A DNA stretch of 64,000 bases from Acidimicrobiales bacterium (GTDB lineage Bacteria; Actinomycetota; Actinomycetes; Mycobacteriales; QHCE01), in assembly GCA_003243955.1 (NCBI GenBank), contig QHCE01000043.1, positions 5,475 to 69,474 on the forward strand, read 5' to 3'. Below, piece after piece: positions 15,833 through 31,461 of the stretch. Position numbers and translations under genes: made by a program. Numbering within the stretch: position 1 is the stretch's first letter; each line of letters begins with the position of its first letter. The notes beneath the pieces are model-generated. The model was not told where the DNA came from. It ran no database searches and saw nothing but the letters and a program-made list of their open reading frames with translations.

Positions 15833-17026
15833 ATGGTCACGTTGGTGGAAGTCGCGCGCTGGGAGTGGCAGCTCCAGGATGGCGGCGATCCCGCGCAACT
15901 ATTGCAAGACTTCGTCATCTCGCAAGGTTTCTCCGCTCAGCAACTAGTGTTGCTGGGAAAAGGATACAACGCCGCATTGGGGGGCAAGCGGTGCCACCGA
16001 CGTGCCGCGCTATTATTCTCCGCCGCGGGTGCCGCGGTGATGGCCGCAGCTCGGTTAGGCTATGCGGCTAGACAAACCGCCACATCCAATCCTGCGTCAT
16101 TCAACCCAACGCCACAGCTCCCCGATGTTGCGGTCGTGGTCTACGACGCGGCGCCAGCTCGTAGTGGCACGGCGGTTGTTGGCAAGCCACGTGGAGGTTA
16201 CCGCATCGGTGCTTGGAAATCCTCTTGGAGCTCAACTGAGTACAAGCGGGCTATAGAGCATGTGCGCAGCGCGATTGCTGATGGGCAGGTGTATCAGGCC
16301 AATGTTGTGGGGCATCTCAGCGCGTCCTACGAGGGTGATCCCAGCGCTGGCCTGCGCGCCGTGTCAGAGCTTCCTGGGGCACGGTTTGGTCAGCTGTTGA
16401 GCGGGCACGGCTGGGCGGTAGCTATGGGTTCACCCGAGCTGTTAGTGCGAGCTACCAATGGAGTGGTAACTACCAAGCCAATCAAAGGCACCCGTCCTCG
16501 CACAGCCACGGGGCGCCGTGAGCTCGCGACTTCGGCCAAAGAACATGCCGAGCACATCATGATCGTGGATATGGCTCGCAACGATGTTGCTCAAATAGCC
16601 ACAGTTGGCTCTGTGGTTGTGCGGGAGCTTTTCGTCGCACAACCGTGGTGTGATTTGTGGCAGGCCGAATCCACGGTTGAAGCGGAGCTGCGACCAGACG
16701 TGGGTATCGCTGATCTCCTGAGCGCGCTCTGTCCTGCCGCTTCGGTGACTGGGGCGCCCAAACTTGCTGCTCTGCGATTGCTCAATGAACTGGAGCCGGT
16801 TGGTCGCGGGCCCAGCATGGGAGCCATAGGTTGGCTTACTAGCACGAAACTCGAGCTAGGGGTGAGTATCCGCACGCTGGCCGCAGTTGATGGTCGGTTT
16901 CATCTATGGGCTGGTGGCGGTATCACGTGGGGGAGTGACCCGGCCGAGGAGGTTGCGGAAGCTGAAGCAAAGTCTCTGCCTATTCGTCGCATCTGTACCC
17001 TTTTGGGCGGCAATGGGGTACACTGA
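15833..17026 (+). CDS. Chorismate-binding enzyme (aminodeoxychorismate synthase component I-like)
   Basis: PELLVRATNGVVTTKPIKGTRPR, EHIMIVDMARNDV, SVTGAPK, RGPSMGAIGW, GGGITWGSDP motifs. N-terminal boundary uncertain. Confidence 0.8.
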   Translation: MVTLVEVARWEWQLQDGGDPAQLLQDFVISQGFSAQQLVLLGKGYNAALGGKRCHRRAALLFSAAGAAVMAAARLGYAARQTATSNPASFNPTPQLPDVAVVVYDAAPARSGTAVVGKPRGGYRIGAWKSSWSSTEYKRAIEHVRSAIADGQVYQANVVGHLSASYEGDPSAGLRAVSELPGARFGQLLSGHGWAVAMGSPELLVRATNGVVTTKPIKGTRPRTATGRRELATSAKEHAEHIMIVDMARNDVAQIATVGSVVVRELFVAQPWCDLWQAESTVEAELRPDVGIADLLSALCPAASVTGAPKLAALRLLNELEPVGRGPSMGAIGWLTSTKLELGVSIRTLAAVDGRFHLWAGGGITWGSDPAEEVAEAEAKSLPIRRICTLLGGNGVH

Positions 17027-17071
17027 CACATCATGTAGTGGCCACGGCGCAACCTCGCCCCGACTGATTGT

Positions 17072-17140
17072 TTTTCCACAGGATTGCCCACAGGACGATC
17101 CCCAGCTCAGCCGCGCCTAGCATCGGCGCGCTGTGGATAA
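17072..17140. promoter_or_regulatory. Cluster of three DnaA-box-like 9-mers
   Basis: TTTTCCACA (17072-17080), TTGCCCACA (17084-17092) and TTATCCACA on the minus strand (17132-17140). Confidence 0.35.
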
Positions 17141-17194
17141 TTCGGATATGTAAAACGCTGCCCTGGCAAGGACTTATTAGCGTAGATTCGTCGC

Positions 17195-18400
17195 ATGAGC
17201 GCGATGAATCCAGTAATGAGCGGTTTACGGTCTAACCGACTTGGCCCGCTTGGCCGCGTGATTAACGCGATGCGCCCGCATCCGCTTCGAAAAGAAGCTA
17301 GGCAGGAGATCATCGCGCTTCAGAATGGGCTCCAGGCGTTCGCCGCACGATACGGCCTCGAGGACTCATCAGGGGCTGTGGGGGAGCAGACTACGAGCTC
17401 TGGTGCTCCGCCAATCGATCACGAACTCAACGAGCAGCTGCGCGTCGTACTCGAGCAAGCGTGCGCCTATTTAACAGAACTGGAGACCGGCAAGCTCCCG
17501 CGTGAAGTTCCCGATTTCGCGCAGCTAGTCGCAGATCTCGAGGATGGCGGCTCGGGGTCGCCCGCAGGGTTGACGGCTCGGGCCGAACTTGCCGGCTTGC
17601 TTCGGAAAATTGACCAACTGGACAACTCCTGGCTCACGGAAGCTCGCCGGAATCGACGAGGTCGCAAACTATGGGCGGCCCGAGACGTCAACCGCGACAA
17701 CATTGATGACGCGGTGCAGCGGCGGCGAACCGAACCTGAGCCCTTAGCCAGGTCACAACTTTCTAGTGCACCCGATTTCACTGAGGCTACCCAAGCGCTG
17801 ATGGCACAGGCCACACAACGCAGGAATGACCTTGCGTCGCAGCTGAAGCGTGAGCAAGCAAAACTCGAGGCTGAACGTGACGAGCGCGATGACGAACCTC
17901 CAATCGGTTATACAGCATTTTGGAATCGTTACGGCCACGAGGTAACACTGCTCCTTATCGCGCTGGAATACGTCGGAGAGGGTGTCGAAGTCACCACACC
18001 AGCGGCGGCCGCCGAACTGCTACACCTGCCGCCTAACGTGCCACCACAGCAGATTCTGGAACGGCTAAGAAGCGAGTTCGAGGGGCGCTACCTGCCGTTT
18101 GGCACAGACTATGACGTTGCAATACTCGAGGCTGTGGCGTCCGGTATGCCCATCGCAGACGCTGTTTTGTTGTCTCAAGAACATGTACTCAAAGCCAATG
18201 GGACTCTCAATACCGCCGCCATGAGGGAACCCGAACTAGCCATACGGCCTCAGGCAGCCGTGCTGGAGCATGGGATCCCGCCAAGCATTCAGGAACGTGC
18301 GCCATGGCGTGCGGTAAATCCGCTAGAGATCGCTCGCGCGGCTCGTAACATGCCCGCACCTCAGCGGTCACTAGCGGATAGTGCTGGTGGGGGAGACTGA
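17195..18400 (+). CDS. Hypothetical acidic protein (401 aa), no family recognised
   Basis: Long ORF with protein-like composition. Charged coiled-coil-like middle (QLKREQAKLEAERDERDDE). Confidence 0.6.
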   Translation: MSAMNPVMSGLRSNRLGPLGRVINAMRPHPLRKEARQEIIALQNGLQAFAARYGLEDSSGAVGEQTTSSGAPPIDHELNEQLRVVLEQACAYLTELETGKLPREVPDFAQLVADLEDGGSGSPAGLTARAELAGLLRKIDQLDNSWLTEARRNRRGRKLWAARDVNRDNIDDAVQRRRTEPEPLARSQLSSAPDFTEATQALMAQATQRRNDLASQLKREQAKLEAERDERDDEPPIGYTAFWNRYGHEVTLLLIALEYVGEGVEVTTPAAAAELLHLPPNVPPQQILERLRSEFEGRYLPFGTDYDVAILEAVASGMPIADAVLLSQEHVLKANGTLNTAAMREPELAIRPQAAVLEHGIPPSIQERAPWRAVNPLEIARAARNMPAPQRSLADSAGGGD

Positions 18401-18487
18401 CATAGCTTTGCCTTTAGGCGTGCCAGGGTAGGCTAAGTGACACAAGCTTGATCGCGCTTATCACATTGCTATCGAGGAGATTTCGGT

Positions 18488-19339
18488 ATGGCATCTGAGG
18501 TTAATGGAACTTTTTTTATCGGGGGAGATCTAGAGGTACGCCGACTCGGCTTTGGCGCTATGCGGCTGACGGGTGAAGGTATTTGGGGCCAACCTCGTGA
18601 TCGAAGGGCGGCAGTTTCAACCGCGCGGCGCACGGTAGAGCTCGGCATCAACTTCATCGACACTGCCGACTCGTACGGACCAGGTGTCAGCGAGGAAATT
18701 CTCGCAGAGGCACTGTATCCATATCCAGAAGGTTTGGTCATCGCGACAAAAGCGGGCCTAGCTCGGACTGGGCCCGACCAGTGGGAGCCGTTGGGCCGTC
18801 CTGAGTATCTACGCCAGCAGGCGGAGCTGAGTTTGCGCCGGCTGCGGTTGGATCGCATCGATTTGTTTCAGTTGCACCGTATTGACCCCCAGGTTCGACT
18901 GGAAGACCAGCTGGGCGCGTTGCGTGAGTTGCAACAAGAGGGCAAGGTGCGGCACATCGGGCTGTCGGAGGTCTCAGTGAAGGAGCTCAAAGAAGCACGC
19001 AGCATTGCCGAAATTGTCAGCGTGCAGAATCTGTTCAACCTCACTAACAAGCAGTCCGAGGACGTCTTGGAGTACTGCGAGGCGGAAAACCTAGCCTTTA
19101 TTCCGTGGTTTCCCATAGCTAGCGGTCAGCATGCTGGTCCCGACAGTCCCATAGCTGATATCGCTCAAGAAGTGGGTGCTACACCTAGTCAAGTTTCACT
19201 GGCCTGGCTGCTGCGCCGCTCTCCTGTGATTCTGCCGATTCCAGGCACGAGCTCCGTAGCGCATTTGGAAGAGAACACCGCGGCCAGCCGAGTCTCGCTC
19301 TCGGACGAGCAGTTTCAGCGCCTGTCGCAGCTGGCCTAA
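18488..19339 (+). CDS. Aldo/keto reductase
   Basis: 283 aa with [12 protein letters not shown].. and ..LEENT.. AKR signatures. Confidence 0.9.
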
Positions 19340-19370
19340 CCAAATTCGCTTCGAAGGTAGTGGCCTAGTA

Positions 19371-19655
19371 CTAGGCGATCATGCGGGTCAGGGCTGCTTG
19401 TAGTAGGTGAATGTGATTGTTATCAAGGCTGCCGATGGGTTTGTGGCCGATGAGTCGCTCGCAATCGATAGTGATGATTTGTTCAGTGATCGCGTAGCTC
19501 GCGGGCTTAAGGAAGGGCAGATCGATGGGCACACGGAAATCCAAATCTCGCGCACGAGTGGTCACTGGGACGACAAGGGTTACAGAGGTGGACAGCCGGC
19601 AATGAAAAGACGAAGCAACGATGATGCCGGGACGGCATAACGAGCCAAGAGGGCC
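19371..19655 (-). pseudogene. mazF: MazF/PemK-family toxin remnant lacking its N-terminus and any antitoxin gene
   Basis: The frame reads RPGIIVASSFHCRLSTSVTLVVPVTTRARDL..QIITIDCERLIG (MazF core). An in-frame stop at 19656-19658 leaves no room for the first ~25 residues, and no mazE-like ORF lies upstream. Confidence 0.6.
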
Positions 19656-19782
19656 TCAGCTTCGACTACTTGACATAATGTATATTATCGGCACTAGGTA
19701 ACAGGTGGGGGGCGGGGCTCAAAGTTCGGCTAACCATGGATCCAAAATCCGTATTGGCAGGATTTGGGGTAGCCTAATCCTG

Positions 19783-20868
19783 ATGCGAAGTCCGGCTAAA
19801 AGTATTACAGGCATAGAGCTTTCTCGACAGTTCTACGAGTCCGTCGTTCGACCTCGAATCACCGCGGCCTTGGGAGCAGTGCCGCATGCCGTGGCACTGC
19901 TGGGTGATGGCTCAGAAGTTTTAGGATTCGATGACGCCGTTTCTACCGATCATGACTTTGGCCCACGCTTACAACTGTTCTTGCCTCTAGAGTGTGACCC
20001 AAGCCCTTTAGCGGCGGTACTCAATGAACTTCCAGCTCAATTTAAAGGTTTCCCGGTCCGCTATCGAGATTCGGATAACCACGATGGCGATGTTCAACAT
20101 CAAGTTGACATAACTACCGCGCCGGAATTCTTCATAGCGATTTTAGGCGTAGATCCTTCCACTGGAATGAGCTTAGGTAACTGGTTATCTACCCCTACCC
20201 AAGTTCTCGCGACACTTACTGGGGGTGAAGTCTTCTTCGACCCCACGAACCTTCTAGGCGATCGACGATCCGCCCTGCGGTGGTATCCCCCAAATGTCTG
20301 GCGTTACGTGCTTGCCAGCGCTTGGCTCCGCATTTCCCAAGGAGAATCGTTCGTGGGCCGAACTGGCGCAACCGGTGATGACCTAGGTTGCGCGCTTGTA
20401 ACAGCGCAACTCGTTCGCGATTTGGTGCGCCTGACGTTTCTCATTGATCAACGATGGGCACCGTACACCAAATGGCTAGGACGGGCTTTTACCGAGCTGC
20501 CACACTCCCCCGGCGTCGCCCCGGCGCTGGCTACAGCGCTCACCGCCAGCACGTGGCGTGAGCGCGAAACGGCGCTATGCAACGCCTCTAGCGCATTAGG
20601 CGAAGCGACGAATCTGCTAGGTCTTGCCGAAACGGTCGACTCCACGCCACGCCAATTCCACACTCGAGACATTCGAGTTATCGGTGCGGAACGTTTCACG
20701 CAAGCACTCATCGAAGCGATCACAGATCGGCAGCTGCACAAACTCGTCAGCACGGTGGGTACACGAGCCGATGGCGTTTATCAGCTGTCTGGCGCTATTG
20801 ACCAAATGAACGTCGATGTTCTTAACCGTCGCTCCCAATGGGCCACCATTGCACGAGGCCTGTGGTGA
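19783..20868 (+). CDS. DUF4037 domain protein (nucleotidyltransferase-like)
   Basis: GIELSRQFYESVVRP..LLGDGSEVLGFDDAVSTDHDFGPRLQLFL. ATG 19783 is chosen inside ORF 19705-20868. Confidence 0.7.
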   Translation: MRSPAKSITGIELSRQFYESVVRPRITAALGAVPHAVALLGDGSEVLGFDDAVSTDHDFGPRLQLFLPLECDPSPLAAVLNELPAQFKGFPVRYRDSDNHDGDVQHQVDITTAPEFFIAILGVDPSTGMSLGNWLSTPTQVLATLTGGEVFFDPTNLLGDRRSALRWYPPNVWRYVLASAWLRISQGESFVGRTGATGDDLGCALVTAQLVRDLVRLTFLIDQRWAPYTKWLGRAFTELPHSPGVAPALATALTASTWRERETALCNASSALGEATNLLGLAETVDSTPRQFHTRDIRVIGAERFTQALIEAITDRQLHKLVSTVGTRADGVYQLSGAIDQMNVDVLNRRSQWATIARGLW

Positions 20869-20882
20869 AAGCGCGAGCCGTT
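20828..20882 (+). repeat. Left copy of exact 55-bp direct repeat
   Basis: TCGCTCCCAATGGGCCACCATTGCACGAGGCCTGTGGTGAAAGCGCGAGCCGTTA. Covers the last 41 nt of the DUF4037 gene (stop 20866-20868) plus 14 nt. Confidence 0.95.
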
Positions 20883-20899
20883 ATCAGATTAATTTTAAG

Positions 20900-21241
20900 C
20901 TATGCGTCGCTACCGAAGCGCAGCACGAACCGGCGCTGCCAAGGTGTTTCTACAGCGCGGGGATGGTAGCGCTGGCGAACGCAGGCCACAACAGCTGCCC
21001 GAGTCCGGGCCTCTTCGAGTAGCTTCCGGGCTTCTTTCCGGTCGCTGGGAAGCCAGAAATCCGGCCACCGTAACCATCGGGCCTCCCATGAAGTGGGTGG
21101 CGGTTGCTTACCTAGCAGGTAAAGGGCGAAGGAAGGCGCTGGTCCGTCAGGCAACGGATGCCGCAGTCCTCGGCCGCGCACCAGCAAACCAGAGGGGAAC
21201 TCCATGACTCCCGCGTTAGTCGAACACCACTTTTCGGTCAC
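20900..21241 (-). CDS. Protein-tyrosine-phosphatase-like protein apparently lacking the catalytic CX5R loop
   Basis: LVRGRGLRHPLPDGPAPSFALYLLGK..WEARWLRWPDFWLPSD..RAVETPWQRRFV matches a remembered actinobacterial phosphatase family. The expected C-GGGRGRTG segment between VVAC and VRQRY is absent. Confidence 0.4.
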   Translation of the reverse strand: MTEKWCSTNAGVMEFPSGLLVRGRGLRHPLPDGPAPSFALYLLGKQPPPTSWEARWLRWPDFWLPSDRKEARKLLEEARTRAAVVACVRQRYHPRAVETPWQRRFVLRFGSDA

Positions 21242-21282
21242 CTGGCGTCCTCTATCGAGGTGCAGATCATGGGCTCACCTCA

Positions 21283-21436
21283 GTAGGACAAAATTCCGCC
21301 TCAGCCGCAGCGGCAACAGACTCCCCCGCGGCCAACGCGCGCTGCTCATGGCTGAGACCACTTGTTGCCCAGCTTACTGAAAGCAGCGTCAAGCTCTTGA
21401 CGTACGAGCCTGCTCGGGCCAAAGCGGCCGTCATGC
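21283..21436 (-). pseudogene. Decayed partial copy of the LuxR-type gene at 25849-26370
   Basis: Hand alignment to 25952-26123 gives 136 identical of 154 aligned positions, one 12-nt indel and five 1-nt indels. It reads ..GESVAAAAEAEF then stop, and both gene ends are missing. Confidence 0.65.
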
Positions 21437-21537
21437 TGGGAATGGGCGCTCCGAAGAGAGCTGGGAGGTCACCTCGCTTGCTGAGAAGTCAACGCGCGGA
21501 ATGGGCGGTGTCGCAGTTTCGACGCGTCGGGGACTGC

Positions 21538-23058
21538 TTAGGCGGGAACGCTAGCGGTTTCGGCTTGCTTCGTGGGCAGGTTCAGCGGGGTGCTGCTGGG
21601 GCGGATGAGCACATATGCCAATAGTCCGGCCACTACTGCGGCGATCCCCGCGATCAGGAATACGGCGTGCAGGCCCGACAGAACAGCGTGGTGCAGGGCG
21701 GTTTCCAGCTGGTGACGGTCGGTGCCGGCGCTGGCCAGCACCTCCTGGGCTCGGCCGGCAGACAGTGCGTTTGCGAGCGGGCCCGGGTCGGGCAGTCCGG
21801 CTTCGGTGAGTGAGTTGGCGGCGAAGTGGGCGAATGCGCTACCGAGCGACGCGATCCCAATCGCGAAACCGAGCTGGCGGACTGTGCTTACCGCTCCCGC
21901 GGCCATGCCGCCGCGCTGTGCTCGAACCGCGCCCATCGCGGCGGACGTGAGGGTCGGCATCGCCAGGCCCACTCCGACTCCGGCCACGGCAAGCCCCGGC
22001 ATGAGCCGGGGCCAGCTCGCGTCGCCAGTGAGCAGCAACGCGTCCAGCAGCGACCCCGCGCCGATCAACACCATGCCGACGGCGATGATCGGGCCTGCCG
22101 AGCGGTGCAGGTATCGGCCGATGCCTGCCGAGACCATGAACGATGCCCCCGCGAGAGGCAGGAACGTTAGCCCAGTTTCGATGGGCGACAGACCCATCAC
22201 GGACTGCAGCCAGATCGTGGAGTAGGTCAGACCGGCGAACGCTGCGAAGGTGACAAACAACGAGGCGATCATGGTGCCGGTGAAAGCTCGCCCGCGAAAC
22301 AGCGACAGGTCCAGCATCGGCTGTTCAGCTCTTACCTCGATCGCCAGGAAGGCGAGCAGTGCCACGGCCGCGATCCCGACCAGACACCACGTGGAAGTCG
22401 TGGCCCAGCGATGCTCGCCAGCCCGGATCAGGGCGTAGGTCAGGGACGTGACGAACACAGTGAAGGTGACGGTGCCGCTGAGGTCCACCCGTCGCCCGAC
22501 CTGACGGACATCGACGGCCAGATACCGCACAGTCATGCCGATCGCCAGCACGCTGATCGGAAGATTGACGAAGAAGATCCAGCGCCAGGAGATCCCCTGC
22601 ACGAGCACCCCGCCGAGCACCGGTCCGATGGCGGTCGCGGCTCCGGCGATCGCGCCCCAGATGCCGAACGCGGAGCCGCGGTCCGCGCCCTGGTAGGTGC
22701 TGTTGAGCAGGGCGGTAGAGCTGGCCATCATCGCCGCGGCGCCGACGCCCTGCACGGCGCGTGCCACGTCCAGGATGCTGGCGTTCGGGGCCAGCCCGCA
22801 CGCCAGCGATGACACCGCGAACAGCGCCAGGCCGGCGAGGTATGCCCGGCGGTGTCCGATCAGGTCAGCAAACGAGCCGATTCCCAGTAGTAGCCCGGCC
22901 AGGGCAAGGGTGTACGCGTCGATCACCCACTGCAGGGAGGAGAAGGAGGCATGCAAAGCGTCCGCGATCTGTGGCAACGCTACGTTCACGATGCTCACGT
23001 CGATGAGCAACATGATCGTCCCGAGACAGATCGCTACCAACGGCAGCCACTTACGCAC
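21538..23058 (-). CDS. DHA2-family (EmrB/QacA-type, 14-TMS) MFS efflux transporter
   Basis: 506 aa. N-terminal LLIDVSIVNVALPQI.. and GSFADLIGHRRAYL motifs. Confidence 0.9.
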   Translation of the reverse strand: MRKWLPLVAICLGTIMLLIDVSIVNVALPQIADALHASFSSLQWVIDAYTLALAGLLLGIGSFADLIGHRRAYLAGLALFAVSSLACGLAPNASILDVARAVQGVGAAAMMASSTALLNSTYQGADRGSAFGIWGAIAGAATAIGPVLGGVLVQGISWRWIFFVNLPISVLAIGMTVRYLAVDVRQVGRRVDLSGTVTFTVFVTSLTYALIRAGEHRWATTSTWCLVGIAAVALLAFLAIEVRAEQPMLDLSLFRGRAFTGTMIASLFVTFAAFAGLTYSTIWLQSVMGLSPIETGLTFLPLAGASFMVSAGIGRYLHRSAGPIIAVGMVLIGAGSLLDALLLTGDASWPRLMPGLAVAGVGVGLAMPTLTSAAMGAVRAQRGGMAAGAVSTVRQLGFAIGIASLGSAFAHFAANSLTEAGLPDPGPLANALSAGRAQEVLASAGTDRHQLETALHHAVLSGLHAVFLIAGIAAVVAGLLAYVLIRPSSTPLNLPTKQAETASVPA

Positions 23059-23128
23059 CAGCGCGGATTCCTTTCGACGGAGAGGGGCGAGATCACGGTG
23101 GACATGGTGAACGGTTGCGGCGTCGGGT

Positions 23129-23494
23129 TTAGTCGCCGGTAGATTCCTGAAGCAGCCAGAGCCGTCCGTCGGGATCTCGGACGGTCATCTCCTTCGACCC
23201 GTGATGGGTCTGTTCGAACGGAGTGACTACGTCGATTGCGGCATCGGGCTCAAATGAGTCCGCGGACGCGACCTTCAAGACGAGCTGCATCCCGGTCGGC
23301 TGAGCCTCAGGCACCTCAGCGATGAACAAGTACGGGCCGGGGCCGTTCCTCAGCATGCCTGAGCTGTGGTCCGTCTCGAACTCCAACTTGAAGCCGAGCG
23401 ACTGGAAGAACTTGGCCGCCTTCCCCCAGTTGTGTGTCTCGAGGTACACAGCCTCGATGCCGTCTGTCGTCATGTCATTTCCCTTCTGAGTCAA
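23129..23494 (-). CDS. VOC/glyoxalase-family protein
   Basis: 121 aa with an [34 protein letters not shown] beta-alpha-beta-beta-beta pattern. The start could instead be the internal ATG (MTTDG). Confidence 0.8.
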
Positions 23495-23658
23495 CGGTCG
23501 TTTCTGCTGTCTTCGCGAGGTTTCGCGAGGTATTGCCGTAGCGCATCGGTCACGAGGGCCGACAGCGACTGCTCGGTGTCGATCGCGTGATGCTTAACCT
23601 GACGAACCAAGTCGGTCGACAGATACACGTTGAACTGCTTGACGCTATGATCGACCAC
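23491..23658 (-). CDS. Ribbon-helix-helix (CopG-like) protein, 55 aa, not in the ORF track
   Basis: My translation: [55 protein letters not shown]. The TGA overlaps the TTG of the VOC ORF (TTGA). Confidence 0.6.
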
Positions 23659-23664
23659 GACAGT

Positions 23665-23674
23665 ATGCTAGCAT
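23665..23674. promoter_or_regulatory. Perfect 10-bp palindrome ATGCTAGCAT upstream of the RHH gene
   Basis: Lies 7 nt upstream of GTG 23658. On the minus strand TAGCAT could be a -10 element for a leaderless transcript. Confidence 0.3.
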
Positions 23675-23739
23675 GCTTGTACACTAGGTGGCTAGCTGAC
23701 TAGTATTGGAGACTCCGAACCAGGGAAGGATGCAACGCC

Positions 23740-24213
23740 ATGTCTGCTTACGCAGCTGCCACGCACGACCCAGTCATTGTCCGCGCCGACGCCGCTGAGC
23801 ACTTACCCGAAATCGGTCACATTTTGCTCGCCGACGCCAGCGCCAGCAAGGGCGCGCTCAGTGCCCACCGCATCCAACTCGCACGTGGAGCCGACGGCGC
23901 TCTGCCTCACCGCCACAACGGATCTTCCGAGCTGTTCTTCATCATCGATGGAGCGCTGGACCTCCTCATCGAGTCAGAAATTGTCACCGCACGATCGGGA
24001 GACCTCCTGATCGTTCCGCCGCGCTCTGACCATGCGTTCCGGACGCATCCCAACAACACAGCCGATGCGCTGATCTTGATCACGCCCGGGATTGAGAGGT
24101 TCGACTACCTCCGCCACGTCGCCCGAATCCGACGCGGCGAGGCCAGCCGCGACAGCATCCTTCACGAACAAGATCGCTACGACACGCACTTCGTCCACAG
24201 CTCAATCTGGTGA
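23740..24213 (+). CDS. Cupin-domain protein
   Basis: GALPHRHNGSSELFFIIDGALDL..GDLLIVPPRSDHAF are cupin motifs 1 and 2. Confidence 0.75.
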   Translation: MSAYAAATHDPVIVRADAAEHLPEIGHILLADASASKGALSAHRIQLARGADGALPHRHNGSSELFFIIDGALDLLIESEIVTARSGDLLIVPPRSDHAFRTHPNNTADALILITPGIERFDYLRHVARIRRGEASRDSILHEQDRYDTHFVHSSIW

Positions 24214-24404
24214 CCAGTCATCACGGGATGCCCTCCACAGAAGCCTGGCCGAGGCAGATCGTCCAATCGCAGGACTCAGGCGGGCCACTGCCCGATAGTC
24301 GAACCCCCACCGGACACGCCTCACCGCCCGTACGAACGAATCGTGAGCTGGACCTGCGATGTCTCAGATACGTAGTCCGATGAATTTTCACTGAGCGACG
24401 GCTA

Positions 24405-24790
24405 ACCGTTACGCCCGCACAATCGGCGACGACCTCGCCGCGCTCAGCATCAAGCTCTCGTGGCAGGCAGGTCTACGACCCCACCGACCCGATAGGGAAG
24501 ATGTTCTTCAACATTTTGGACGCCTTCGCAGAGTTTGAGGTCGACCTGCTGCGGATGAGAACTCGGGAGACATGGCCGTCGCGCGGGCGAAGGGCAGACT
24601 GTGCGGCAAGCAACCAAAACTCTCGGCGAAGCAGCAAACCGAACTGCGGCGCATGCACGGCACCGGCTACTTTGCACTTCGGGTCAGCTTCGGGAGTTTC
24701 GGCCCTTCACTGAACGCATCAACGGTGTGAACCGATCGGTCGGGCGCCTGAACCGTCAACCAGCAAAGTCCGCGCCTGGGCCCGCGACGC
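24405..24790 (+). pseudogene. Serine recombinase (resolvase/invertase) remnant
   Basis: VYDPTDPIGKMFFNILDAFAEFEVDLLRMRTRE, then a frameshift to GDMAVARAKGRLCGKQPKLSAKQQTELRRMHGTG, then a further frame change in the HTH part. The catalytic N-terminal domain is absent. Confidence 0.7.
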
Positions 24791-24993
24791 CGGGCTGCAC
24801 GTGACCGACCGTGGCTGCCTTCGTCCTGAGATACTGGCGAAACGCCAACCAGTCGTAGAGAGCGCCGAGCCACAAGATCGCGAAAGCAACCAGCCTCGTT
24901 CGGTTGCCACCTTTTCGGTTCACCCCCACCCACCTCGTGCTACTCGAGCAAAGGGACCAGATTCGCTCCGCTGCTAAGGCGACCCCCTAATCA

Positions 24994-25048
24994 TCGCTCC
25001 CAATGGGCCACCATTGCACGAGGCCTGTGGTGAAAGCGCGAGCCGTTA
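24994..25048 (+). repeat. Right copy of exact 55-bp direct repeat
   Basis: Identical base for base to 20828-20882. An orphan 3-prime fragment of the DUF4037 gene. Confidence 0.95.
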
Positions 25049-25447
25049 CCAGATGGTTTTAAGGCTACTGACACTACGAGCAAATTCGTGAATTTTCCCA
25101 TCTTTGGTAGCCAAAGGCACTGAAAGTTCCTGTGCGGTAGCGTACAGGATTCGGTCAGCCGGATCGCCATGGAAACCCACTTCACCAAGCAATGCTGCGC
25201 CAACTGCCGCCTGAGGAGTCAACGGTGCAAGCTCAATTTGTTCCTCGCGGAATAAGTCACGCATCCACGTATACAGCTCACGGTCGAGTTCAACACGGCC
25301 CTTCACAAGGAGCTCGCCGATCTCCCAACACGAGATCGGACTGATAAGTATAGTGTCAGCTTTAGCAATTTCACGTGCCACCCGATGAGAAAGGCGCCCA
25401 CCACCAGCCTGCCACCACAGCACCACGTGAGTATCGAGCAGGATCAC
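25046..25447 (-). CDS. vapC: PIN-domain toxin VapC
   Basis: MILLDTHVVLWW.., 133 aa. 4-nt overlap with the upstream antitoxin gene. Confidence 0.85.
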   Translation of the reverse strand: MILLDTHVVLWWQAGGGRLSHRVAREIAKADTILISPISCWEIGELLVKGRVELDRELYTWMRDLFREEQIELAPLTPQAAVGAALLGEVGFHGDPADRILYATAQELSVPLATKDGKIHEFARSVSSLKTIW

Positions 25448-25701
25448 GCTGAGCGCCTGTATTCAGTATCTAACTCGGCTTCCCAGGCTTCACCTGAGGA
25501 GAAGTACACCAGGTCGTCTGCAGCGATCAGTCGGACGCTGCCCATTGTTGAAGCGTGTACTGGCTCATCCAAAGGTGCTAACCGAGCAACGGGGCGACCA
25601 TACTTGGTCACGATCACAGATATTTTAGTGGCCTCAACCTGATCAAGAATCGCCAAACACTGTGTCTTGAACGTGCTGGCTTGAATCCTTCGCGGCTCCA
25701 T
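25444..25701 (-). CDS. Phd/YefM-type antitoxin partner of VapC
   Basis: 85 aa. ..FKTQCLAILDQVEATKISVIVTKYGRPVARLAPL is the Phd/YefM N-terminal fold pattern. Confidence 0.8.
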   Translation of the reverse strand: MEPRRIQASTFKTQCLAILDQVEATKISVIVTKYGRPVARLAPLDEPVHASTMGSVRLIAADDLVYFSSGEAWEAELDTEYRRSA

Positions 25702-25752
25702 AAACTATAGCCCCCTCTTTGAAGTAAGGGATAGTTTAGCATGAAATGGCTT

Positions 25753-25766
25753 ATGACTATAGTCAT
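25753..25766. promoter_or_regulatory. Perfect 14-bp palindrome ATGACTATAGTCAT upstream of the vapBC operon
   Basis: Lies in the AT-rich 148-bp region upstream of start 25701. Candidate autoregulatory operator. Confidence 0.3.
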
Positions 25767-25848
25767 TGGTTACATCTACCCTCATTAAACCAAATGCCAG
25801 AAAACCGAAATTCGGGTGAGAACAATCAGAGCATTAGACTGATATCTG

Positions 25849-26370
25849 TTAACTCCGCGACCTGATCAGCCGTATATAGGCGTGTACCGCCTGCTGGGTC
25901 GTATCAACCCCGAGCCGCTCACGAGCTTGTGCAAGTCGGCGGTTAGCGGTTCGTAGGGACAAAAATTCCGCCTCAGCCGCAGTGGCAACTGACTCCCCCG
26001 CGGCCAACCGTGACAGTAGTGCGCTCTGTTCACGGCTGAGACCGCTCTGCTGCCCAGCTTGTTGAGAAGAGGCGTCAAGCTCTTGACGTACGACCCCAAT
26101 TCGGGTCAGAGCGGCCGTCATGCGGCCAGCCAGTTGCATGTTGGAGCACTGCACCACGACTCCAGCTCCACGAGCAGCCGCGGAGGCTACCACCGCAACT
26201 GCCTGTTGGTCCTCGGCGAAGCCGGTGACTACGAGTTTGCGTGCTGCTACGTCCCAGGGCTCCCTGGGTAACGCCAGACCCCGCTGCACACACCAGCCTG
26301 CGTTTGTTAGCTGACGCACTGCCGTAGCCGTTGCGTCCGCGGAGAGTGTCACTAGTAGAGGCACCGTCAT
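25849..26370 (-). CDS. LuxR-type HTH transcriptional regulator
   Basis: C-terminal GLSREQSALLSRLAAGESVATAAEAEFLSLRTANRRLAQARERLGV. Confidence 0.75.
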   Translation of the reverse strand: MTVPLLVTLSADATATAVRQLTNAGWCVQRGLALPREPWDVAARKLVVTGFAEDQQAVAVVASAAARGAGVVVQCSNMQLAGRMTAALTRIGVVRQELDASSQQAGQQSGLSREQSALLSRLAAGESVATAAEAEFLSLRTANRRLAQARERLGVDTTQQAVHAYIRLIRSRS

Positions 26371-26618
26371 GGGCCGCTACCCAGCGGGTGTTTTACCATG
26401 CAACCCCCTCTGCCATCGGACTGGCACCGTGAGAACTTTCCAGCATGCCAGTTTTAGCGCGTGCTGGTAAGGGTCAGTTCACAGCTCATCCGCAACTCGC
26501 GCTAGATGGCGAGATTAAAGTGCGCACTCCAATAAGGAATACTGCTGTACAACGCAGCGCATCAGGTCATGCGCTGCGAAAAAACTGTGGCATCAGGGAG
26601 CACGAGGAGCACAGGTTC

Positions 26619-27599
26619 ATGAACACTCAGCAGGCCCGCCTGGTCGGTATCTGTGTCAGCTTTCTGCTTGCGATAATTGTCGGTACGTTGACTGGCTGGA
26701 TAGCCTCTGATCGTAACTCTGACTCTGTGGTCACCCCAAACAGGGAAACGTCTACTACTCAAGCGCCTGCTACAAAGGACACTCCATCCAAGCTCCCACC
26801 CGTTCCGAGCGTGAAACCTAAAATCCTACCCAGCGTCGGACCTTCCAAATCCGATCCACCGCCGATCCCTAATGCCAGCCCACAGCCGACGGCTTCCGTC
26901 TCAACCCCGCCTTCACAGAGCAGCAAGACGGGGACGTCACCTCAGCAAACATCAGCCGCTAAGCAGCCTGAAACCGCGGCTACCACGTCGTCCACTCCTG
27001 CCAGCGCCGCGGCGAATTTTACTGGCGAGTTAGCTGGCTACACCACAGATGCAACCGGGGAGCCACTCTCTTCCTGGGTCTCCTTTTCACTCCCCGCGGC
27101 AGCGGTGAGCTTTTTAGGAGCACTGCTTACTGGATTGGCAATGGTTGCGTTGTTCAGCGCTGTTGCGCGTCGCAACCAGGCAGCACAAGCACGCTTGAGT
27201 GGTCTTGCACATCCCTCCCCTGCCGCTTCAGATGTCGGTTCTGCCGGCACCTACGTGCTATCCACAGCTGATTCCGTGGCTACCGTCGGATCGAGCCAAG
27301 AACGCGACCAGCTGGTGGAAACACTGATATACGTCCGCGATCGGGCCACCAGCAGCGCAATTAACGATCGGGTTGGCGCGGCGCTTAGTGCGGCGGGTGT
27401 TATTGAGCTGAACCCAACCGGGCAACGCTTCGATGCAACGTCTCATGAAGCAGGAGGCACCGAACCCACCGATAACCCTCAAGTACATGGCATCATTGCC
27501 GGTGTGGAAGTAGCAGGGTATGCCGACCGTGACGGTCGGACTTTGCGCGTACCGATAGTAACCGTGTACCAGCACAGCGTCGGACGGGCCAACGTGTAG
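26619..27599 (+). CDS. Membrane-anchored protein with Pro/Ser/Thr-rich linker and C-terminal GrpE-like domain
   Basis: ATG 26619 follows GAGGAG. TM segment LVGICVSFLLAIIVGTLTGWI. C-terminus reads ELNPTGQRFDATSHEAGG..IIAGVEVAGYADRDGRTLRVPIVTV. Confidence 0.6.
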   Translation: MNTQQARLVGICVSFLLAIIVGTLTGWIASDRNSDSVVTPNRETSTTQAPATKDTPSKLPPVPSVKPKILPSVGPSKSDPPPIPNASPQPTASVSTPPSQSSKTGTSPQQTSAAKQPETAATTSSTPASAAANFTGELAGYTTDATGEPLSSWVSFSLPAAAVSFLGALLTGLAMVALFSAVARRNQAAQARLSGLAHPSPAASDVGSAGTYVLSTADSVATVGSSQERDQLVETLIYVRDRATSSAINDRVGAALSAAGVIELNPTGQRFDATSHEAGGTEPTDNPQVHGIIAGVEVAGYADRDGRTLRVPIVTVYQHSVGRANV

Positions 27600-27686
27600 G
27601 GAATATTAGATAGTTAACGGCTGTTACATAACTGAGGCACTTTGAGTAGTGCACCCTGAGCTTCACACTCACCGGGAGTGAACAGC

Positions 27687-28025
27687 ATGGCGGATCGCAC
27701 ATTACGAGGTAGCCGGCTAGGTGCGGTCAGCTACGAGACAGATCGGCACACCGAGCTTGCTCCCCGTAGCGTCGGCGAATATCAGTGCCCACAGGGGCAT
27801 CGCTTTACGGTGCCGTTTGCCGCCGATGCCGAGCTTCCCGCCACGTGGGAATGTCGAGCTGACGGCATGGTGGCTCATCTAGCCGATGGCGAAACGCCAG
27901 AGGACACAAAGCTCCGGCCAGCACGCACCCATTGGGACATGCTGTTGGAACGTCGCAGCATGGGCGAGTTGGAAGAAGTTCTCGCGGAGCGCTTAGAAGT
28001 GTTACGGGATCGGCGCGGACGGTAG
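27687..28025 (+). CDS. rbpA: RNA polymerase-binding protein RbpA
   Basis: MADRTLRGSRLGAVSYETDR..THWDMLLERRS..LEEVLAERLEVLRDRR is colinear with mycobacterial RbpA. Confidence 0.9.
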   Translation: MADRTLRGSRLGAVSYETDRHTELAPRSVGEYQCPQGHRFTVPFAADAELPATWECRADGMVAHLADGETPEDTKLRPARTHWDMLLERRSMGELEEVLAERLEVLRDRRGR

Positions 28026-28250
28026 GTACGCTGTTGAAGACATCAGAACGACCCGTAGCGGCTGTTCTTGCCGCGCCCATACTCATCGATGTTCGCGGCG
28101 ATCGCTTCGACTCGTTTCTTGACCTAGCCGTATTCGGCTCTCAGCTTGGAACTGACGTGCTCAATACTAGAAATGGAGCACCAGCGGCGCTCATTGCGGT
28201 CGTGTGCTCGCCGCGCAGCCTTTCGAACCGGTGAGGCCAGCTGGGTCATA

Positions 28251-28280
28251 GTCCACATACGGTGGTCACCGTATGTGGAC
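28251..28280. terminator. Hairpin just downstream of fxsA
   Basis: GTCCACATACGGTG-GT-CACCGTATGTGGAC, perfect complementary arms, 11 nt after the fxsA stop. Confidence 0.55.
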
Positions 28281-28290
28281 GCCAAAACGC

Positions 28291-28869
28291 TCATGTCTCA
28301 CGGGGTGGCTCATCCTTGGGCAATTCAGAACGTTTAGGCGTAGGCTCCGGCGCGATGATGGTCATGTGCTCCGCCTCGGCAACGCCACCCTCCCCTTCCG
28401 GCTCAGTAACAGCCCGATCAGCCGTTTCACGCACCGAGCCAGATTCGCCCCGGTGCGAGCGTACCCGAATAGGCTCGTTGAGACGTTCGCTAACTGAATC
28501 TGGCATCCACCTGGTCAGCCGGCGTAGCGTCCTACGCGCAGCCCACTGCCTTACAGGCGACAGTAATAGCACGCCTGCTGCGATGCTACTTCCAAATCCT
28601 GGCAGGATGAGCAAACTCCCTGCTATTGCGCCCAGCAATGAGTCCGCTACCGCCGTGGGGGCATGAGCCGCGCTGTCCCGCTCGTGCAGTACGCGCCACG
28701 CTCGGCGTCCCTGGTAGCGCAGCACCCACATACCCGCTACCGCGGAAGCCAAAAGCAAAATTACCGTGGCGCTATTGCCCAACCACTTTGCTACCAGCAC
28801 GATCCCAGTGATTTCAGCGAATGCTAGCAGTACGGCTAGCAATCCCGCGAAGCTTGCTAGCCGTCGCAT
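28291..28869 (-). CDS. fxsA: FxsA family membrane protein
   Basis: LLAFAEITGIVLVAKWLG..GMWVLRYQGRRAW is the typical FxsA N-terminus. Confidence 0.8.
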   Translation of the reverse strand: MRRLASFAGLLAVLLAFAEITGIVLVAKWLGNSATVILLLASAVAGMWVLRYQGRRAWRVLHERDSAAHAPTAVADSLLGAIAGSLLILPGFGSSIAAGVLLLSPVRQWAARRTLRRLTRWMPDSVSERLNEPIRVRSHRGESGSVRETADRAVTEPEGEGGVAEAEHMTIIAPEPTPKRSELPKDEPPRET

Positions 28870-28872
28870 ACT

Positions 28873-31461
28873 TCATTCTCCAGCACGTTTACGGGGTTGT
28901 CCTCTAAGCAGCCGTGCAATACGACGCAGGCGGCCCTTAATTCCCCACAAAGTAACCAGCCACAGCGCCTCCAGCACGATCTTCGAGCTCATTTTGCTGT
29001 TGCCATGTTCCCGGTCAGTAAACGTTATCGGAGCTTCAGTAATAGTGAACCCGGCCTGGAAGGCGCGCCACGTGAGATCAACCTGGAAACAGTAACCTTG
29101 CGAAGCCACGGCTGAGAAGTCAATAGCATCTAGCACTGTTCGGCGATACGCTCTAAACCCACCCGTGGCATCCTTGACTTGGAACCCTAGGGCAAGCCGG
29201 ACATATACATTTGCTAACCGTGACAACAGCAACCGGTGTTTAGGCCAGTTCAAGACTTGGCCGCCAGGCATCCAACGTGAACCAATGACTAGATCTGCGT
29301 TCTCTAGTGCGCTCAACAGCCGAGGTAGCTCCTCAGGCGCGTGTGAGCCATCGGCATCCATCTCGACAACCACGTCGTAGTTGTTCTCGCGCGCCCAGGA
29401 AAATCCGGCAATATAGGCCGCACCCAGGCCTTTTTTGCCTTCGCGGTGCAGCACGTGGAGTGCCTTGTCCTCGTTGGCGAGCGCGTCAGCGATCTCGCCG
29501 GTGCCATCAGGACTATTGTCATCGACAATCAGTAGTGCCACATCGGGCGCAGCCACGCGCATCCGCTGCGTGATCTGCGTAAGGTTCTTAGCTTCGTTGA
29601 ACGTGGGCACCACAACGAGCACTCGCGCTGGTACTCGCTCTTGCGCGCTAGCAGCGGTTGCTGCCGAACCCGAGGCGGCCGCAGCTAGCGAGTGCAACGC
29701 TGGGCTCTCGTCTGTTGCTGGCTCAGCCTCGGAAACAGTAGTAGGTTGTTCCGCCAACACCATGGCATCTCCCTCTGAAGCTCGTAATTTCTCTCGGGCT
29801 GGTGTGGCATTGCTGGTCACTGAGGTTCGAGCCGCCACAAACGCCAAAACGATCGAGAAAGCAGCCAGCAACGACATGATCCAAGTTGGCCACGAGCCCA
29901 CTTTTGTGGCAAGAGTACGCGATGGGTCAAGTTCTATTTCACGCAGCAATGCTGCGGGAGTAAATAGCTGCGTGGCGGCCAACACCACTCCTTGCGGCGA
30001 GACGATCGCTGAAATTCCGGTCGTCGATGCCATGACGGCGTACCGATGATATTCCACGGCGCGCAGCCGCACCATGGCCAGCTGTTGAGCGCTTTGGGCG
30101 GAACGACCAAACGTTGCATTGTTGGTTTGCACGACGAACAGCTGAGCTCCAGGCCTTAGCACATCGGCCGATAGCTGATCGTAGGCAACTTCAAAACAAA
30201 TGACGTCCCCAATGCGGACGGGCCCCAGTTGGAGCAGACCGGGACGTTTCCCAGCTACGAAGTTCCGCCGCACGAGATCCACTTTGCCGCTGATCTGCCG
30301 GAAAAAGCTTCTGTAGGGCACATACTCGGCAAATGGCACCGGATGGCGCTTGACGTATTGCTCTCCTGGCCCGGTCGCTGGATCCCAAACGATGCCGGTG
30401 TTACGCAAAGTGCCCTGTGGACCGTCTAGCACCGCGCCGACCAAGATCGGCGCACCTATCTTGGCGGCCGCGCTACTGATCAGATCGGCGGCTGTCGGGT
30501 CTTGATACGGGTCAATGTCGGAGGAGTTCTCTGGCCAGATCACCAGATCGGGCTGCCGGACCTCACCACGCTGGATTCGCTCAGCCAGGCGTCGCGTTTG
30601 CGTTACATGGTTGTTCAGTACGGCGCGGCGCTGTGCGTTGAAAGCCAGACCCGCGCGCGGCACGTTGCCTTGTATCACCGCAACAGTTACCCGCTGGTTG
30701 GGTGATCTTGAATGAGTGGAGGGCAGGCTCAGCCGTGCACCCTCGAGGCCCCCGATGAGCACCCCAAAAATGACCGTTAAGACCAGTGCCCCACTAACGA
30801 ACCACTGGCGCAGGCCCAGCGCTGGAATACGCGCCCATAGGTAATAAGCCGCCACCGCAACACAGCCACCACATAGCGCTACCGTGAAGCTCACCGCGGG
30901 AGCACCGCCCAGCGCGGCCCACCACATCAGAGGACTATCCGCTTGACTAAAGGCTAATCGACCCCACGGAAAACCGCCCCACGGCAGTGCTGAACGCAGC
31001 GTCTCCTGGGCCACCCAGGCTGCCGCAATCAGCACCGGCAGCAACAGCCGAAGCTGTGGCCATCGGGCTGGTATCCGGGCAAGTGATGCCAGAACCACGC
31101 CGAGTAACGCCATGTACAACGCCTCGAAGGCTGCGAGGGTGAGCCATGGGAACCATCCGACATACAGCCCGGTCCAGTACAGCAACGGCACAAAGAAAGC
31201 CAGGCCGTGCACGCCTCCCAAGAGCAGCGCCCATCGCCACGACTGGCCCAACGATATTGCCGAGAGAAGCCCTACAGCTACGAGAGCGTTCCACCACCAG
31301 TCCAAGGGCGCAAATGCGGTCAGGGCGCACCCGCCAGACACCGCGGCCAGCAGGAGCGACCAGCCAGGAGCGCACAGCGTGCGATAGGAAGAGCTTGAGG
31401 GCACCCAGATCCTTGCCATTAACGTTGACGCTAGATATTGGCGAAGCGCTGGGGTGGACAT
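28873..31461 (-). CDS. ppm1: Bifunctional apolipoprotein N-acyltransferase / polyprenol-phosphate mannose synthase (Lnt-Ppm1 fusion)
   Basis: The N-terminal polytopic CN-hydrolase part (DLVIWPENSS, IGDVICFEVAY) is fused to a C-terminal GT2 domain (VVVPTFNEAKN, LIVDDNSPDGT), as in Rv2051c. Confidence 0.9.
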   Translation of the reverse strand: MSTPALRQYLASTLMARIWVPSSSSYRTLCAPGWSLLLAAVSGGCALTAFAPLDWWWNALVAVGLLSAISLGQSWRWALLLGGVHGLAFFVPLLYWTGLYVGWFPWLTLAAFEALYMALLGVVLASLARIPARWPQLRLLLPVLIAAAWVAQETLRSALPWGGFPWGRLAFSQADSPLMWWAALGGAPAVSFTVALCGGCVAVAAYYLWARIPALGLRQWFVSGALVLTVIFGVLIGGLEGARLSLPSTHSRSPNQRVTVAVIQGNVPRAGLAFNAQRRAVLNNHVTQTRRLAERIQRGEVRQPDLVIWPENSSDIDPYQDPTAADLISSAAAKIGAPILVGAVLDGPQGTLRNTGIVWDPATGPGEQYVKRHPVPFAEYVPYRSFFRQISGKVDLVRRNFVAGKRPGLLQLGPVRIGDVICFEVAYDQLSADVLRPGAQLFVVQTNNATFGRSAQSAQQLAMVRLRAVEYHRYAVMASTTGISAIVSPQGVVLAATQLFTPAALLREIELDPSRTLATKVGSWPTWIMSLLAAFSIVLAFVAARTSVTSNATPAREKLRASEGDAMVLAEQPTTVSEAEPATDESPALHSLAAAASGSAATAASAQERVPARVLVVVPTFNEAKNLTQITQRMRVAAPDVALLIVDDNSPDGTGEIADALANEDKALHVLHREGKKGLGAAYIAGFSWARENNYDVVVEMDADGSHAPEELPRLLSALENADLVIGSRWMPGGQVLNWPKHRLLLSRLANVYVRLALGFQVKDATGGFRAYRRTVLDAIDFSAVASQGYCFQVDLTWRAFQAGFTITEAPITFTDREHGNSKMSSKIVLEALWLVTLWGIKGRLRRIARLLRGQPRKRAGE

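Follow-up and report, generated by a model that had tools for sequence, protein, structure and literature searches.

Architecture of the locus

The window analysed here is a stretch of 64,000 nt from contig QHCE01000043.1 (assembly GCA_003243955.1), deposited as an Acidimicrobiales bacterium and placed by GTDB in the Mycobacteriales; all coordinates refer to this window. The subject is the interval between a DUF4037 gene and a LuxR-like regulator gene, in which two copies of a 55-nt repeat enclose a set of GC-rich genes. From left to right, the interval consists of the body of DUF4037; the DUF4037 tail, a vapC stub, a phosphatase relic and a LuxR fragment (LuxR'); the cargo; a second set comprising the tail, vapC, vapB and LuxR from its 3' end to its middle; and the rest of LuxR. 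Both bordering genes are intact, DUF4037 at the left and vapBC-LuxR at the right. The arrangement may well have arisen when a plasmid-derived cassette entered by homologous recombination and duplicated its target. The features of the locus are listed in map order.

19783-20868, plus strand: DUF4037 gene, left anchor of the variable interval (Pfam PF13228, E=5.9e-28)
20829-20883, no strand: left copy of the 55-nt repeat, holding the last 13 codons of DUF4037 (RSQWATIARGLW), the stop and 15 nt; inside a patch of ~80 nt, 20823-20902
20884-20902, minus strand: dead stub of the vapC 3' end (SLKLI-stop-stop, compared with SLKTIW-stop in the intact vapC)
20900-21241, minus strand: relic of a PTP/DSP-like phosphatase (ORF113), with a 32-aa in-frame deletion removing the CX5R P-loop
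21286-21436, minus strand: LuxR' pseudogene fragment, approximately aa 83-138 of the LuxR-like protein; paralog of 25957-26123
21447-24317, no strand: demonstrably foreign cargo, collinear with the sister cassette L025; maximal extent 21437-24987
21538-23058, minus strand: DHA2-family MFS efflux pump, 506 aa, intact (Pfam MFS_1, E=4.4e-51; TIGR00711, 252.9 bits, cutoff 230.2)
23129-23473, minus strand: VOC/glyoxalase-like protein, 114 aa, weakly assigned (Pfam Glyoxalase, E=0.018; NCBIfam ZbmA/BLMA, E=0.017-0.05; all below cutoffs)
23491-23658, minus strand: CopG/ribbon-helix-helix (RHH) protein, 55 aa, sharing an operon with the VOC gene (Pfam RHH_1, E=3.7e-7)
23740-24213, plus strand: Cupin_2 protein, 157 aa (Pfam, E=2.3e-11), 75% aa identity to a Streptomyces plasmid homolog
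24413-24679, plus strand: remnant of a small serine resolvase, residues ~81-170 of a 196-aa protein, in at least two frames
24994-25048, no strand: right copy of the 55-nt repeat, an orphan whose last 3 nt are the vapC stop codon; inside the patch 24988-25067
25046-25447, minus strand: vapC (PIN domain), intact (Pfam PIN, E=3.8e-12)
25444-25701, minus strand: vapB (Phd/YefM-like), intact (Pfam PhdYeFM, E=2.3e-6)
25849-26370, minus strand: LuxR-like regulator, 173 aa, intact, right anchor; block 25957-26123 is paralogous to the left fragment

The direct repeat and the extended homology

The repeat is perfect over 55 nt, with 20829-20883 identical to 24994-25048 at a spacing of 4165 nt. The initial annotation was right that an exact 55-bp repeat exists, but it placed the left copy at 20828-20882, one nucleotide out of register, and the string found there is not identical to 24994-25048. 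Exact direct repeats of at least 20 nt occur in the whole window only at offsets of 4165, 4672 and 4686, all within the same two regions; because none occurs elsewhere, the repeat is far beyond chance.

Similarity in the same register extends over ~80 nt (20823-20902 and 24988-25067, 92%). To the right of the 55-mer, homology runs on for 19 nt into the vapC stub, with 13 of the 19 positions matching in ungapped register (binomial probability ~2e-4) or 15 of 18 when two gaps are allowed. The intact vapC is convergent with the direction of the DUF4037 tail, and its stop codon falls in the right 55-mer. On the left side of the 55-mer, homology in the right copy stops after only 6 nt. The left junction reads ...CTTAACCG, the 55-mer and TCAGATTA, and the right junction reads ...CCTAATCA, the 55-mer and CCAGATGG. 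A second homologous block pairs 21286-21436 with 25957-26123 (blastn E=7e-38; offsets 4672-4686). The two blocks, one made of the tail and the vapC stub and the other of LuxR, are collinear, with the same order and orientation on either side of the cargo. In its right copy, the duplicated segment covers ~1.1 kb (24988-26123) and contains the DUF4037 tail, vapC, vapB and the 3' two-thirds of LuxR.

The other homologous blocks differ at ~11-14% of sites, substitutions plus indels, whereas the repeat matches at 55 of 55. Given that rate of difference, the probability of a perfect run of at least 55 nt is 0.005-0.03 in the surviving 228 nt and 0.03-0.18 in the 1.1-kb tract; the perfect run is only mildly surprising. 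No structural reason for its conservation was found in folding z-scores, which are approximately -0.2 on both strands, and a Rfam search of 17000-29000 returned 0 matches, hence none for the 55-mer.

The end of the flanking gene is duplicated, as had been claimed. The genuine end of the gene lies in the left copy, and the right one is an orphan fragment: when compared with 15 homologs, the tail matches a C-terminus that is conserved across the family, with R376 and G385 invariant and L386 conserved in at least 90% of sequences. The C-terminus of DUF4037 is intact at the insertion site. At the other end of the gene, the reading frame is open from a GTG at 19705 (387 aa); all 15 homologs begin near residue 40, and this N-terminal extension has no support in their alignment. 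The alignment indicates that the true start is probably the ATG at 19783. One NCBI assembly annotates a DUF4037 product of 361 aa. DUF4037 is an accessory gene without conserved synteny; its ~60%-identical homologs (L018, L019) share none with the window and lie in unrelated contexts.

The left relic zone

Between the left repeat and 21436 lie 550 nt that appear to be a decayed second copy of the host locus. ORF113 is considered a relic because a clean 32-aa deletion takes out the P-loop. Its family comprises 345 homologs, mostly ~100-250 aa in length (142-167 aa for the eight aligned members), which match Pfam PTP-SAK and Y_phosphatase; a minority of the listed homologs, including most of the eight aligned, match ORF113 in two stretches. 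The GC content at third codon positions (GC3) of the phosphatase relic is 0.64, resembling the backbone. LuxR' is identical to the intact LuxR at 135 of 149 positions (90.6%), with 20 gap columns, and it is damaged by a frameshift, a 12-nt deletion and the loss of both gene ends. A 12-nt insertion is common to LuxR' and the window's own LuxR and is absent from the orthologs of the three nearest lineages (L020, L021, L023). This shared, lineage-specific insertion shows that LuxR' is a genuine paralog, derived from this lineage or a very close one.

The state of the relic zone bears on one alternative history, in which a sibling-lineage locus consisting of the tail, vapC stub, phosphatase relic, LuxR' and cassette became anchored in the DUF4037 tail through homology-facilitated illegitimate recombination, while its other end joined illegitimately just upstream of the recipient's tail and thereby duplicated the tail. 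The relic zone differs from the resident copy by ~10-25% but has lineage-specific features in common with it, the right-copy homology ends abruptly 6 nt upstream of the core, and the perfect tract would be the anchor. However, no such locus is present in the collections searched, and homology-facilitated illegitimate recombination usually deletes recipient DNA rather than duplicating it. This history is considered very unlikely.

The foreign cargo

Foreign DNA starts at ~21437-21447, not at 20884, and extends to at least 24317 and at most 24987. The start is placed there because the onset of homology to L025 and the change in GC3 coincide at this position. L025 is a 4.2-kb Logan contig of run SRR22405841 from an organism of 67% GC; it shares 85.2% nt identity with the window over 21447-23677 and 88.4% over 23715-24317, and it encodes the closest relative of the MFS protein (85% aa). 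The homology begins at 21447, ~10 nt after the end of the LuxR' block, and runs beyond the cupin stop. GC3 is 0.82 in the MFS gene, 0.81 in VOC, 0.71 in RHH and 0.73 in the cupin gene, and 0.50-0.62 in backbone genes.

The picture of a 4.1-kb GC-rich insertion drawn from the initial annotation is thus accurate in that foreign DNA lies between the repeats, but not over the full 4.1 kb, since only ~2.7-2.9 kb is compositionally foreign. Its hand counts of G+C, 84 of 120 in 22561-22680 and 28 of 60 in 20041-20100, are exact on recount, and profile searches with Pfam and NCBIfam recover the gene content that it listed between the repeats: a DHA2 pump, a weak VOC protein, RHH, cupin and a Resolvase-domain remnant. 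The Streptomyces homologs of 23129-23473 are annotated as VOC family proteins, and the protein has weak similarity to bleomycin- and zorbamycin-binding proteins.

The MFS-VOC-RHH-cupin order recurs at ~69% identity on NZ_CP108735, a megaplasmid of Streptomyces sp. NBC_00984, amid insertion sequence (IS) elements. A search of the insert against plasmids, which had been suggested as a way to the donor, reached at best ~69% over 32% of the query and so recovered a related module but no near-identical donor. Judging from these relatives, the cassette is probably plasmid-derived. Neither sister cassette, L025 or that of the Streptomyces plasmid, contains the 55-mer or the relic zone. The RHH-VOC pair alone (23129-23658) is found at ~68-72% nt identity across many Streptomyces plasmids and even on Burkholderia replicons, a distribution that suggests a widely mobile two-gene unit. 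In L025 (3075-3574 of the reverse complement; window 23677-23715), an extra gene for a 133-aa glyoxalase-family protein, absent from the window, lies between RHH and cupin, so the module itself is variable.

The condition and limits of the cargo are relevant to a second alternative, in which the stretch reaching from the DUF4037 tail to mid-LuxR was long ago duplicated in situ, in tandem or segmentally, a cassette was later inserted independently at or near the joint, and gene conversion preserved the 55 nt. These two steps would produce the same anatomy as an insertion-duplication. They would also accommodate a left copy whose decay (phosphatase relic, frameshifts, ~10% substitutions) looks older than a cargo with intact genes and GC3 values that have not drifted toward the backbone. 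But the cargo would have to land exactly on the duplication joint (21437, 24987), an unlikely coincidence compared with a single event; unselected tandem duplications are unstable, and a 55-nt conversion tract within ~80 nt of homology is unusual. This sequence of events is rated as rather unlikely.

The resolvase remnant and the search for an integrase

The only recombinase between the repeats is non-functional, as the initial annotation held, and survives as residues ~81-170 in multiple frames. Its reported position immediately inside the right repeat is not borne out, as the remnant ends ~315 nt before the repeat. It covers positions 103-144 of 145 in the Pfam Resolvase profile (E=4.5e-9), and tblastn with a resolvase of the Hoyosella plasmid pAS9A-1 matches it in different frames (E=2e-20 and 5e-17). 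The best intact relatives share 78-80% aa identity over 69 residues and are small recombinases on plasmids of Mycobacteriales and others, such as the 196-aa protein of pAS9A-1, a mobilizable plasmid of 17.9 kb. The N-terminus with the catalytic serine is not recognisable in the remnant, whereas an active enzyme of this kind would have that domain intact, followed by a C-terminal helix-turn-helix (HTH). Small resolvases and invertases act at res or inversion sites with a 2-bp stagger and do not generate long target duplications. Since the remnant belongs to this class, the claim that it produced the 55-bp duplication is not supported.

Three further candidates related to the remnant were rejected. 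A minus-strand match at 24676-24882 (tblastn E=0.014), considered as an inverted N-terminal piece of the resolvase, is spurious, having no Pfam match and no tblastn match among plasmids. The idea that the resolvase was already truncated at its 5' end in a common ancestor with L025 was dropped because the nucleotide alignment with the L025 tail is no better than with shuffled sequences. The possibility that the 'HTH protein' gene downstream of the cupin gene on the Streptomyces plasmid is an intact version of the recombinase was discarded, since nothing in the window resembles this gene. By eye, this plasmid gene resembles a transposase fragment.

Gene tables show no tyrosine or large serine integrase and no xis within ~10 kb on either side, and no rep or tra genes or remnants were found in the insert or within ~10 kb. 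Pfam searches of all open reading frames and remnant frames of 20884-24993 yielded only the Resolvase-domain fragment, with no integrase and no transposase domain. There is no tRNA gene in the window, and no pair of terminal inverted repeats has its arms at the cargo ends. The locus does not have the make-up of a transposon either: transposase and inverted repeats are missing, and the flanking repeat is 55-80 nt long rather than 5 bp.

These searches bear most directly on the explanation offered by the initial annotation, in which the 55-mers are the attachment sites attL and attR. The identity segments of such sites are tens of bp long, and diverged homology beyond the core is known for elements with a captured gene end, for example e14 and phage 21 at icd. 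In its general form, an integrative element, whether a genomic islet or the remnant of something resembling an actinomycete integrative and conjugative element (AICE), would have entered the 3' end of DUF4037 site-specifically, with its integrase since lost or supplied in trans. The perfect repeats do contain the 3' end of a gene that was kept intact, and the perfect run is somewhat longer than background divergence predicts. Identity segments at gene 3' ends are also used by actinomycete integrative elements (PMC2440964). On the other hand, the target is not a tRNA gene; the insert and the ~10 kb around it yielded neither genes nor remnants for a tyrosine or large serine integrase, xis, rep or tra; and the sole recombinase is a relic of the resolvase class without its catalytic N-terminus. 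Unrelated sequence should begin just outside and inside an identity segment, whereas here homology continues for 19 nt and resumes at the LuxR blocks. The 550 nt adjoining the supposed attL are backbone-like in composition, and the cassettes of L025 and the Streptomyces plasmid have neither 55-mer nor relic zone. Accounting for LuxR' and the vapC stub would need a step of imprecise excision, which turns the explanation into a homology model.

Site-specific entry is therefore possible but unlikely, and its narrower version, in which the decayed recombinase itself made attL and attR, is not supported, because the relic is a small resolvase and the repeat sits in a larger segmental duplication. 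The initial annotation had named as evidence against itself a repeat that belongs to a larger segmental duplication unrelated to the cargo. The larger duplication exists, but it is tied to the cargo rather than unrelated to it. A homology-driven insertion-duplication is preferred over attachment sites because of the collinear second block and the limits of the cargo. On this reading, the 55-mer represents the best-preserved piece of a larger, decayed target duplication and not the footprint of a recombinase.

Public copies and the variable interval

All contigs that encode DUF4037, VapC or MFS in exactly the window's version match it at ~100% identity, and they either show the same arrangement or are broken at the repeat. 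They comprise three NCBI metagenome-assembled genomes (MAGs) labelled Mycobacteriales bacterium and several Logan runs. All public copies represent one clone and therefore offer no empty site to compare. The taxonomic assignment of the clone is inconsistent between deposits: in protein clusters P0001 and P0121, 100% identical proteins are labelled 'Mycobacteriales bacterium' in one MAG and 'Acidimicrobiales bacterium' in another. A scan of genome contigs with DUF4037 gave a best match of 55% and revealed no empty site or near-identical donor. A metagenome scan for a 40-nt core returned 0 matches, and one with VapC found at most 62% identity in unrelated contexts, with no DUF4037, LuxR or PTP genes nearby.

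The Logan contigs (k=31) break at the repeat, which is what this k would lead one to expect, with L002 ending at 20883, L009 starting at 25019 and L015 spanning 20854-24979. L015 (SRR33880236) stops at 24979, which is 14 nt short of the right repeat and not k-1 nt into it, while the left-flank contig L002 (SRR31090146) reads through the whole 55-mer before it ends. A branch in the graph, low coverage or a variant immediately inside the right junction could account for these odd ends.

Such breaks invite the suspicion of an assembly artefact, in which a separate 4.1-kb circle sharing 55 nt with the chromosome was threaded into it by de Bruijn assemblers. The length of the repeat equals a common k value, 55 being the default largest k of metaSPAdes, and all of the Logan contigs break there. 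However, three separately deposited NCBI assemblies show the identical arrangement, and the errors in one of them (GCA_036726005.1) are rich in indels, as is typical for a different technology. In addition, the homology exceeds 55 nt, the LuxR' block is independent of k, and reads longer than 55 nt resolve such a repeat. An artefact is hardly credible. There is also a slim chance that the 55-mers are kept identical through continuing use, with the 4.1-kb efflux cassette excising and reinserting, or amplifying, through RecA or a recombinase acting in trans. This would amount to a population-level on/off or copy-number switch for drug efflux, and the odd ends of L002 and L015 might then reflect co-existing empty-site or circular forms.

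The nearest relatives overall share no more than 64-69% aa identity with the window. The nearest lineages, found through the LuxR-like protein, are at 67-69% aa and differ in gene content. The backbone Lnt-FxsA-RbpA-...-LuxR is conserved in sister lineages. In L021, a DUF4037 gene follows LuxR at a distance of 3.6 kb, with the relative orientation of the two unchanged, and the genes between them encode PfkB, a cation-efflux protein, a methyltransferase and a glyoxalase. Because L021 carries entirely different genes between LuxR and DUF4037, this interval is a variable region.

Several side observations were made around the interval. An AT-rich, partly palindromic motif of 27-28 nt, CTACTTGACATAATGTATATTATCGGC, lies upstream of DUF4037 at 19666-19693, the far edge of the variable interval, and again at 12729-12756 of L021, 10222-10248 of L023 and 6620-6646 of L024. 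Each genome has a single copy. The motif is without a match in Rfam and is exact in three lineages, while the surrounding DNA is only ~65-75% identical. In L023 and L024 it is ~175 nt upstream of a cation-efflux gene. The motif probably serves as an operator or promoter. In GCA_050999955.1, an 84-aa PemK/MazF-like toxin product is annotated on the minus strand at 19371-19625, directly upstream of DUF4037, and another assembly calls a 75-aa plus-strand open reading frame in that region instead; it is possibly another toxin-antitoxin relic of the same variable region. In the sister lineage L023, a Tn3-family transposase fragment is fused or adjacent to an aminoglycoside phosphotransferase (APH) domain at 214-2031. 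This piece lies ~5.6 kb from the LuxR-like gene, on the side opposite the LuxR-DUF4037 interval, and represents mobile-element activity near the locus in another lineage.

Proposed origin by insertion-duplication

The best explanation of the locus, held with about even confidence, is a Campbell-type (single-crossover) insertion-duplication of a plasmid-derived cassette into the variable interval. A circular, plasmid-derived molecule would have carried a copy of the chromosomal segment from the DUF4037 tail to mid-LuxR (~1.1 kb), and a single homologous crossover, dependent on RecA and requiring no integrase, would have integrated the circle. Integration of this kind would leave an intact DUF4037 at the left and an intact vapBC-LuxR at the right. 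The redundant left copy would have decayed later, or it may have arrived already decayed or diverged on the incoming DNA, and would now persist as the 6-codon vapC stub, the P-loop-deleted phosphatase relic in place of vapCB and the frameshifted LuxR'. The 55-mer would be the longest surviving tract of identity, representing either the crossover site or a later patch of gene conversion, and the small resolvase would have arrived as a passenger with the cassette. The anatomy of the locus, the foreign character and extent of the cargo, the class to which the resolvase belongs and the variability of the interval are shown directly, whereas the circular intermediate, the part played by RecA and the order of events are inferred.

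This explanation is favoured because collinear duplicated blocks flank the cargo and both flanking genes remain intact. The copies of the segment lie in the same orientation on either side of the foreign DNA, and the edges of that DNA fall at the inner edges of the duplication, with 21436/21447 at the left and right-copy homology starting from 24988. It is further supported by the lack of terminal inverted repeats, an integrase or a tRNA gene, and by the fact that relatives of both the module and the resolvase sit on plasmids. Each of the alternatives set out above is less well supported.

Several findings weigh against an insertion-duplication. The copies would be expected to be near-identical throughout, and only 55 nt are identical; a perfect 55 of 55 beside diverged blocks calls for gene conversion or luck. 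In the left copy, a 380-nt phosphatase relic stands in place of approximately 890 nt (vapC, vapB and the 3' end of LuxR), and an extra event or a diverged donor locus is therefore needed. With just 6 nt of right-copy homology preceding the 55-mer, the crossover falls at the extreme edge of the segment. The right edge of the cargo lies somewhere in 24318-24987, as L025 ends at the position matching 24317. Searches of genomes, metagenomes and plasmids found no empty site, no circular form and no donor with the homologous segment.

Comparison with known systems

Among integrative elements of actinobacteria, pSAM2, SLP1 and pMEA300 resemble the locus in their host group and in having direct repeats that overlap the 3' end of a still-functional gene (PMC2440964). 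These elements integrate into tRNA genes, have a tyrosine integrase gene beside attP and carry xis, rep and tra (PMC2440964). The locus described here, in contrast, has no tRNA gene, integrase, xis, rep or tra, measures only 4.1 kb between the repeats and contains host-derived relics. The prophages at the 3' end of icd in Escherichia coli, e14 and phage 21, similarly bring in a diverged end of the target gene and leave an intact hybrid gene and an orphan 3' fragment, with homology beyond the crossover. They are full prophages that have their own integrase, whereas the present locus has no phage genes and contains a second host-derived block, LuxR', 400 nt further in. Tn3-family and res-resolvase modules share the placement of a small serine resolvase beside accessory genes of the efflux or resistance type and have relatives on plasmids. 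Unlike them, the locus has no DDE transposase, no terminal inverted repeats of ~38 bp and no 5-bp target duplication, and its resolvase fragment is non-functional.

The closest likeness is to Campbell-type insertion-duplication of plasmids, in which foreign, plasmid-like DNA lies between direct copies of a chromosomal segment, the bordering genes stay intact and no integrase or transposase is needed. The locus differs in that its copies are unequal, the left one having lost ~890 nt, gained the phosphatase relic and diverged by ~10% save for the 55-nt tract, and in that both the circular intermediate and the origin of the homologous segment it carried are hypothetical. The locus also provides a caution, as a perfect repeat at a gene 3' end together with a recombinase pseudogene mimics attL/attR. 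Its biological value is modest and lies in showing that an uncultured Mycobacteriales-like lineage has gained, by horizontal transfer, a module conserved in actinobacteria (DHA2 pump, RHH-VOC pair, cupin). The DUF4037-LuxR interval emerges as a recombination hotspot marked by the dead remains of a phosphatase and a resolvase, a stub of vapC and a piece of LuxR. As a whole, the feature adds one more case of a familiar type of event, in a lineage that has been little sampled, and is in keeping with ordinary genome plasticity.

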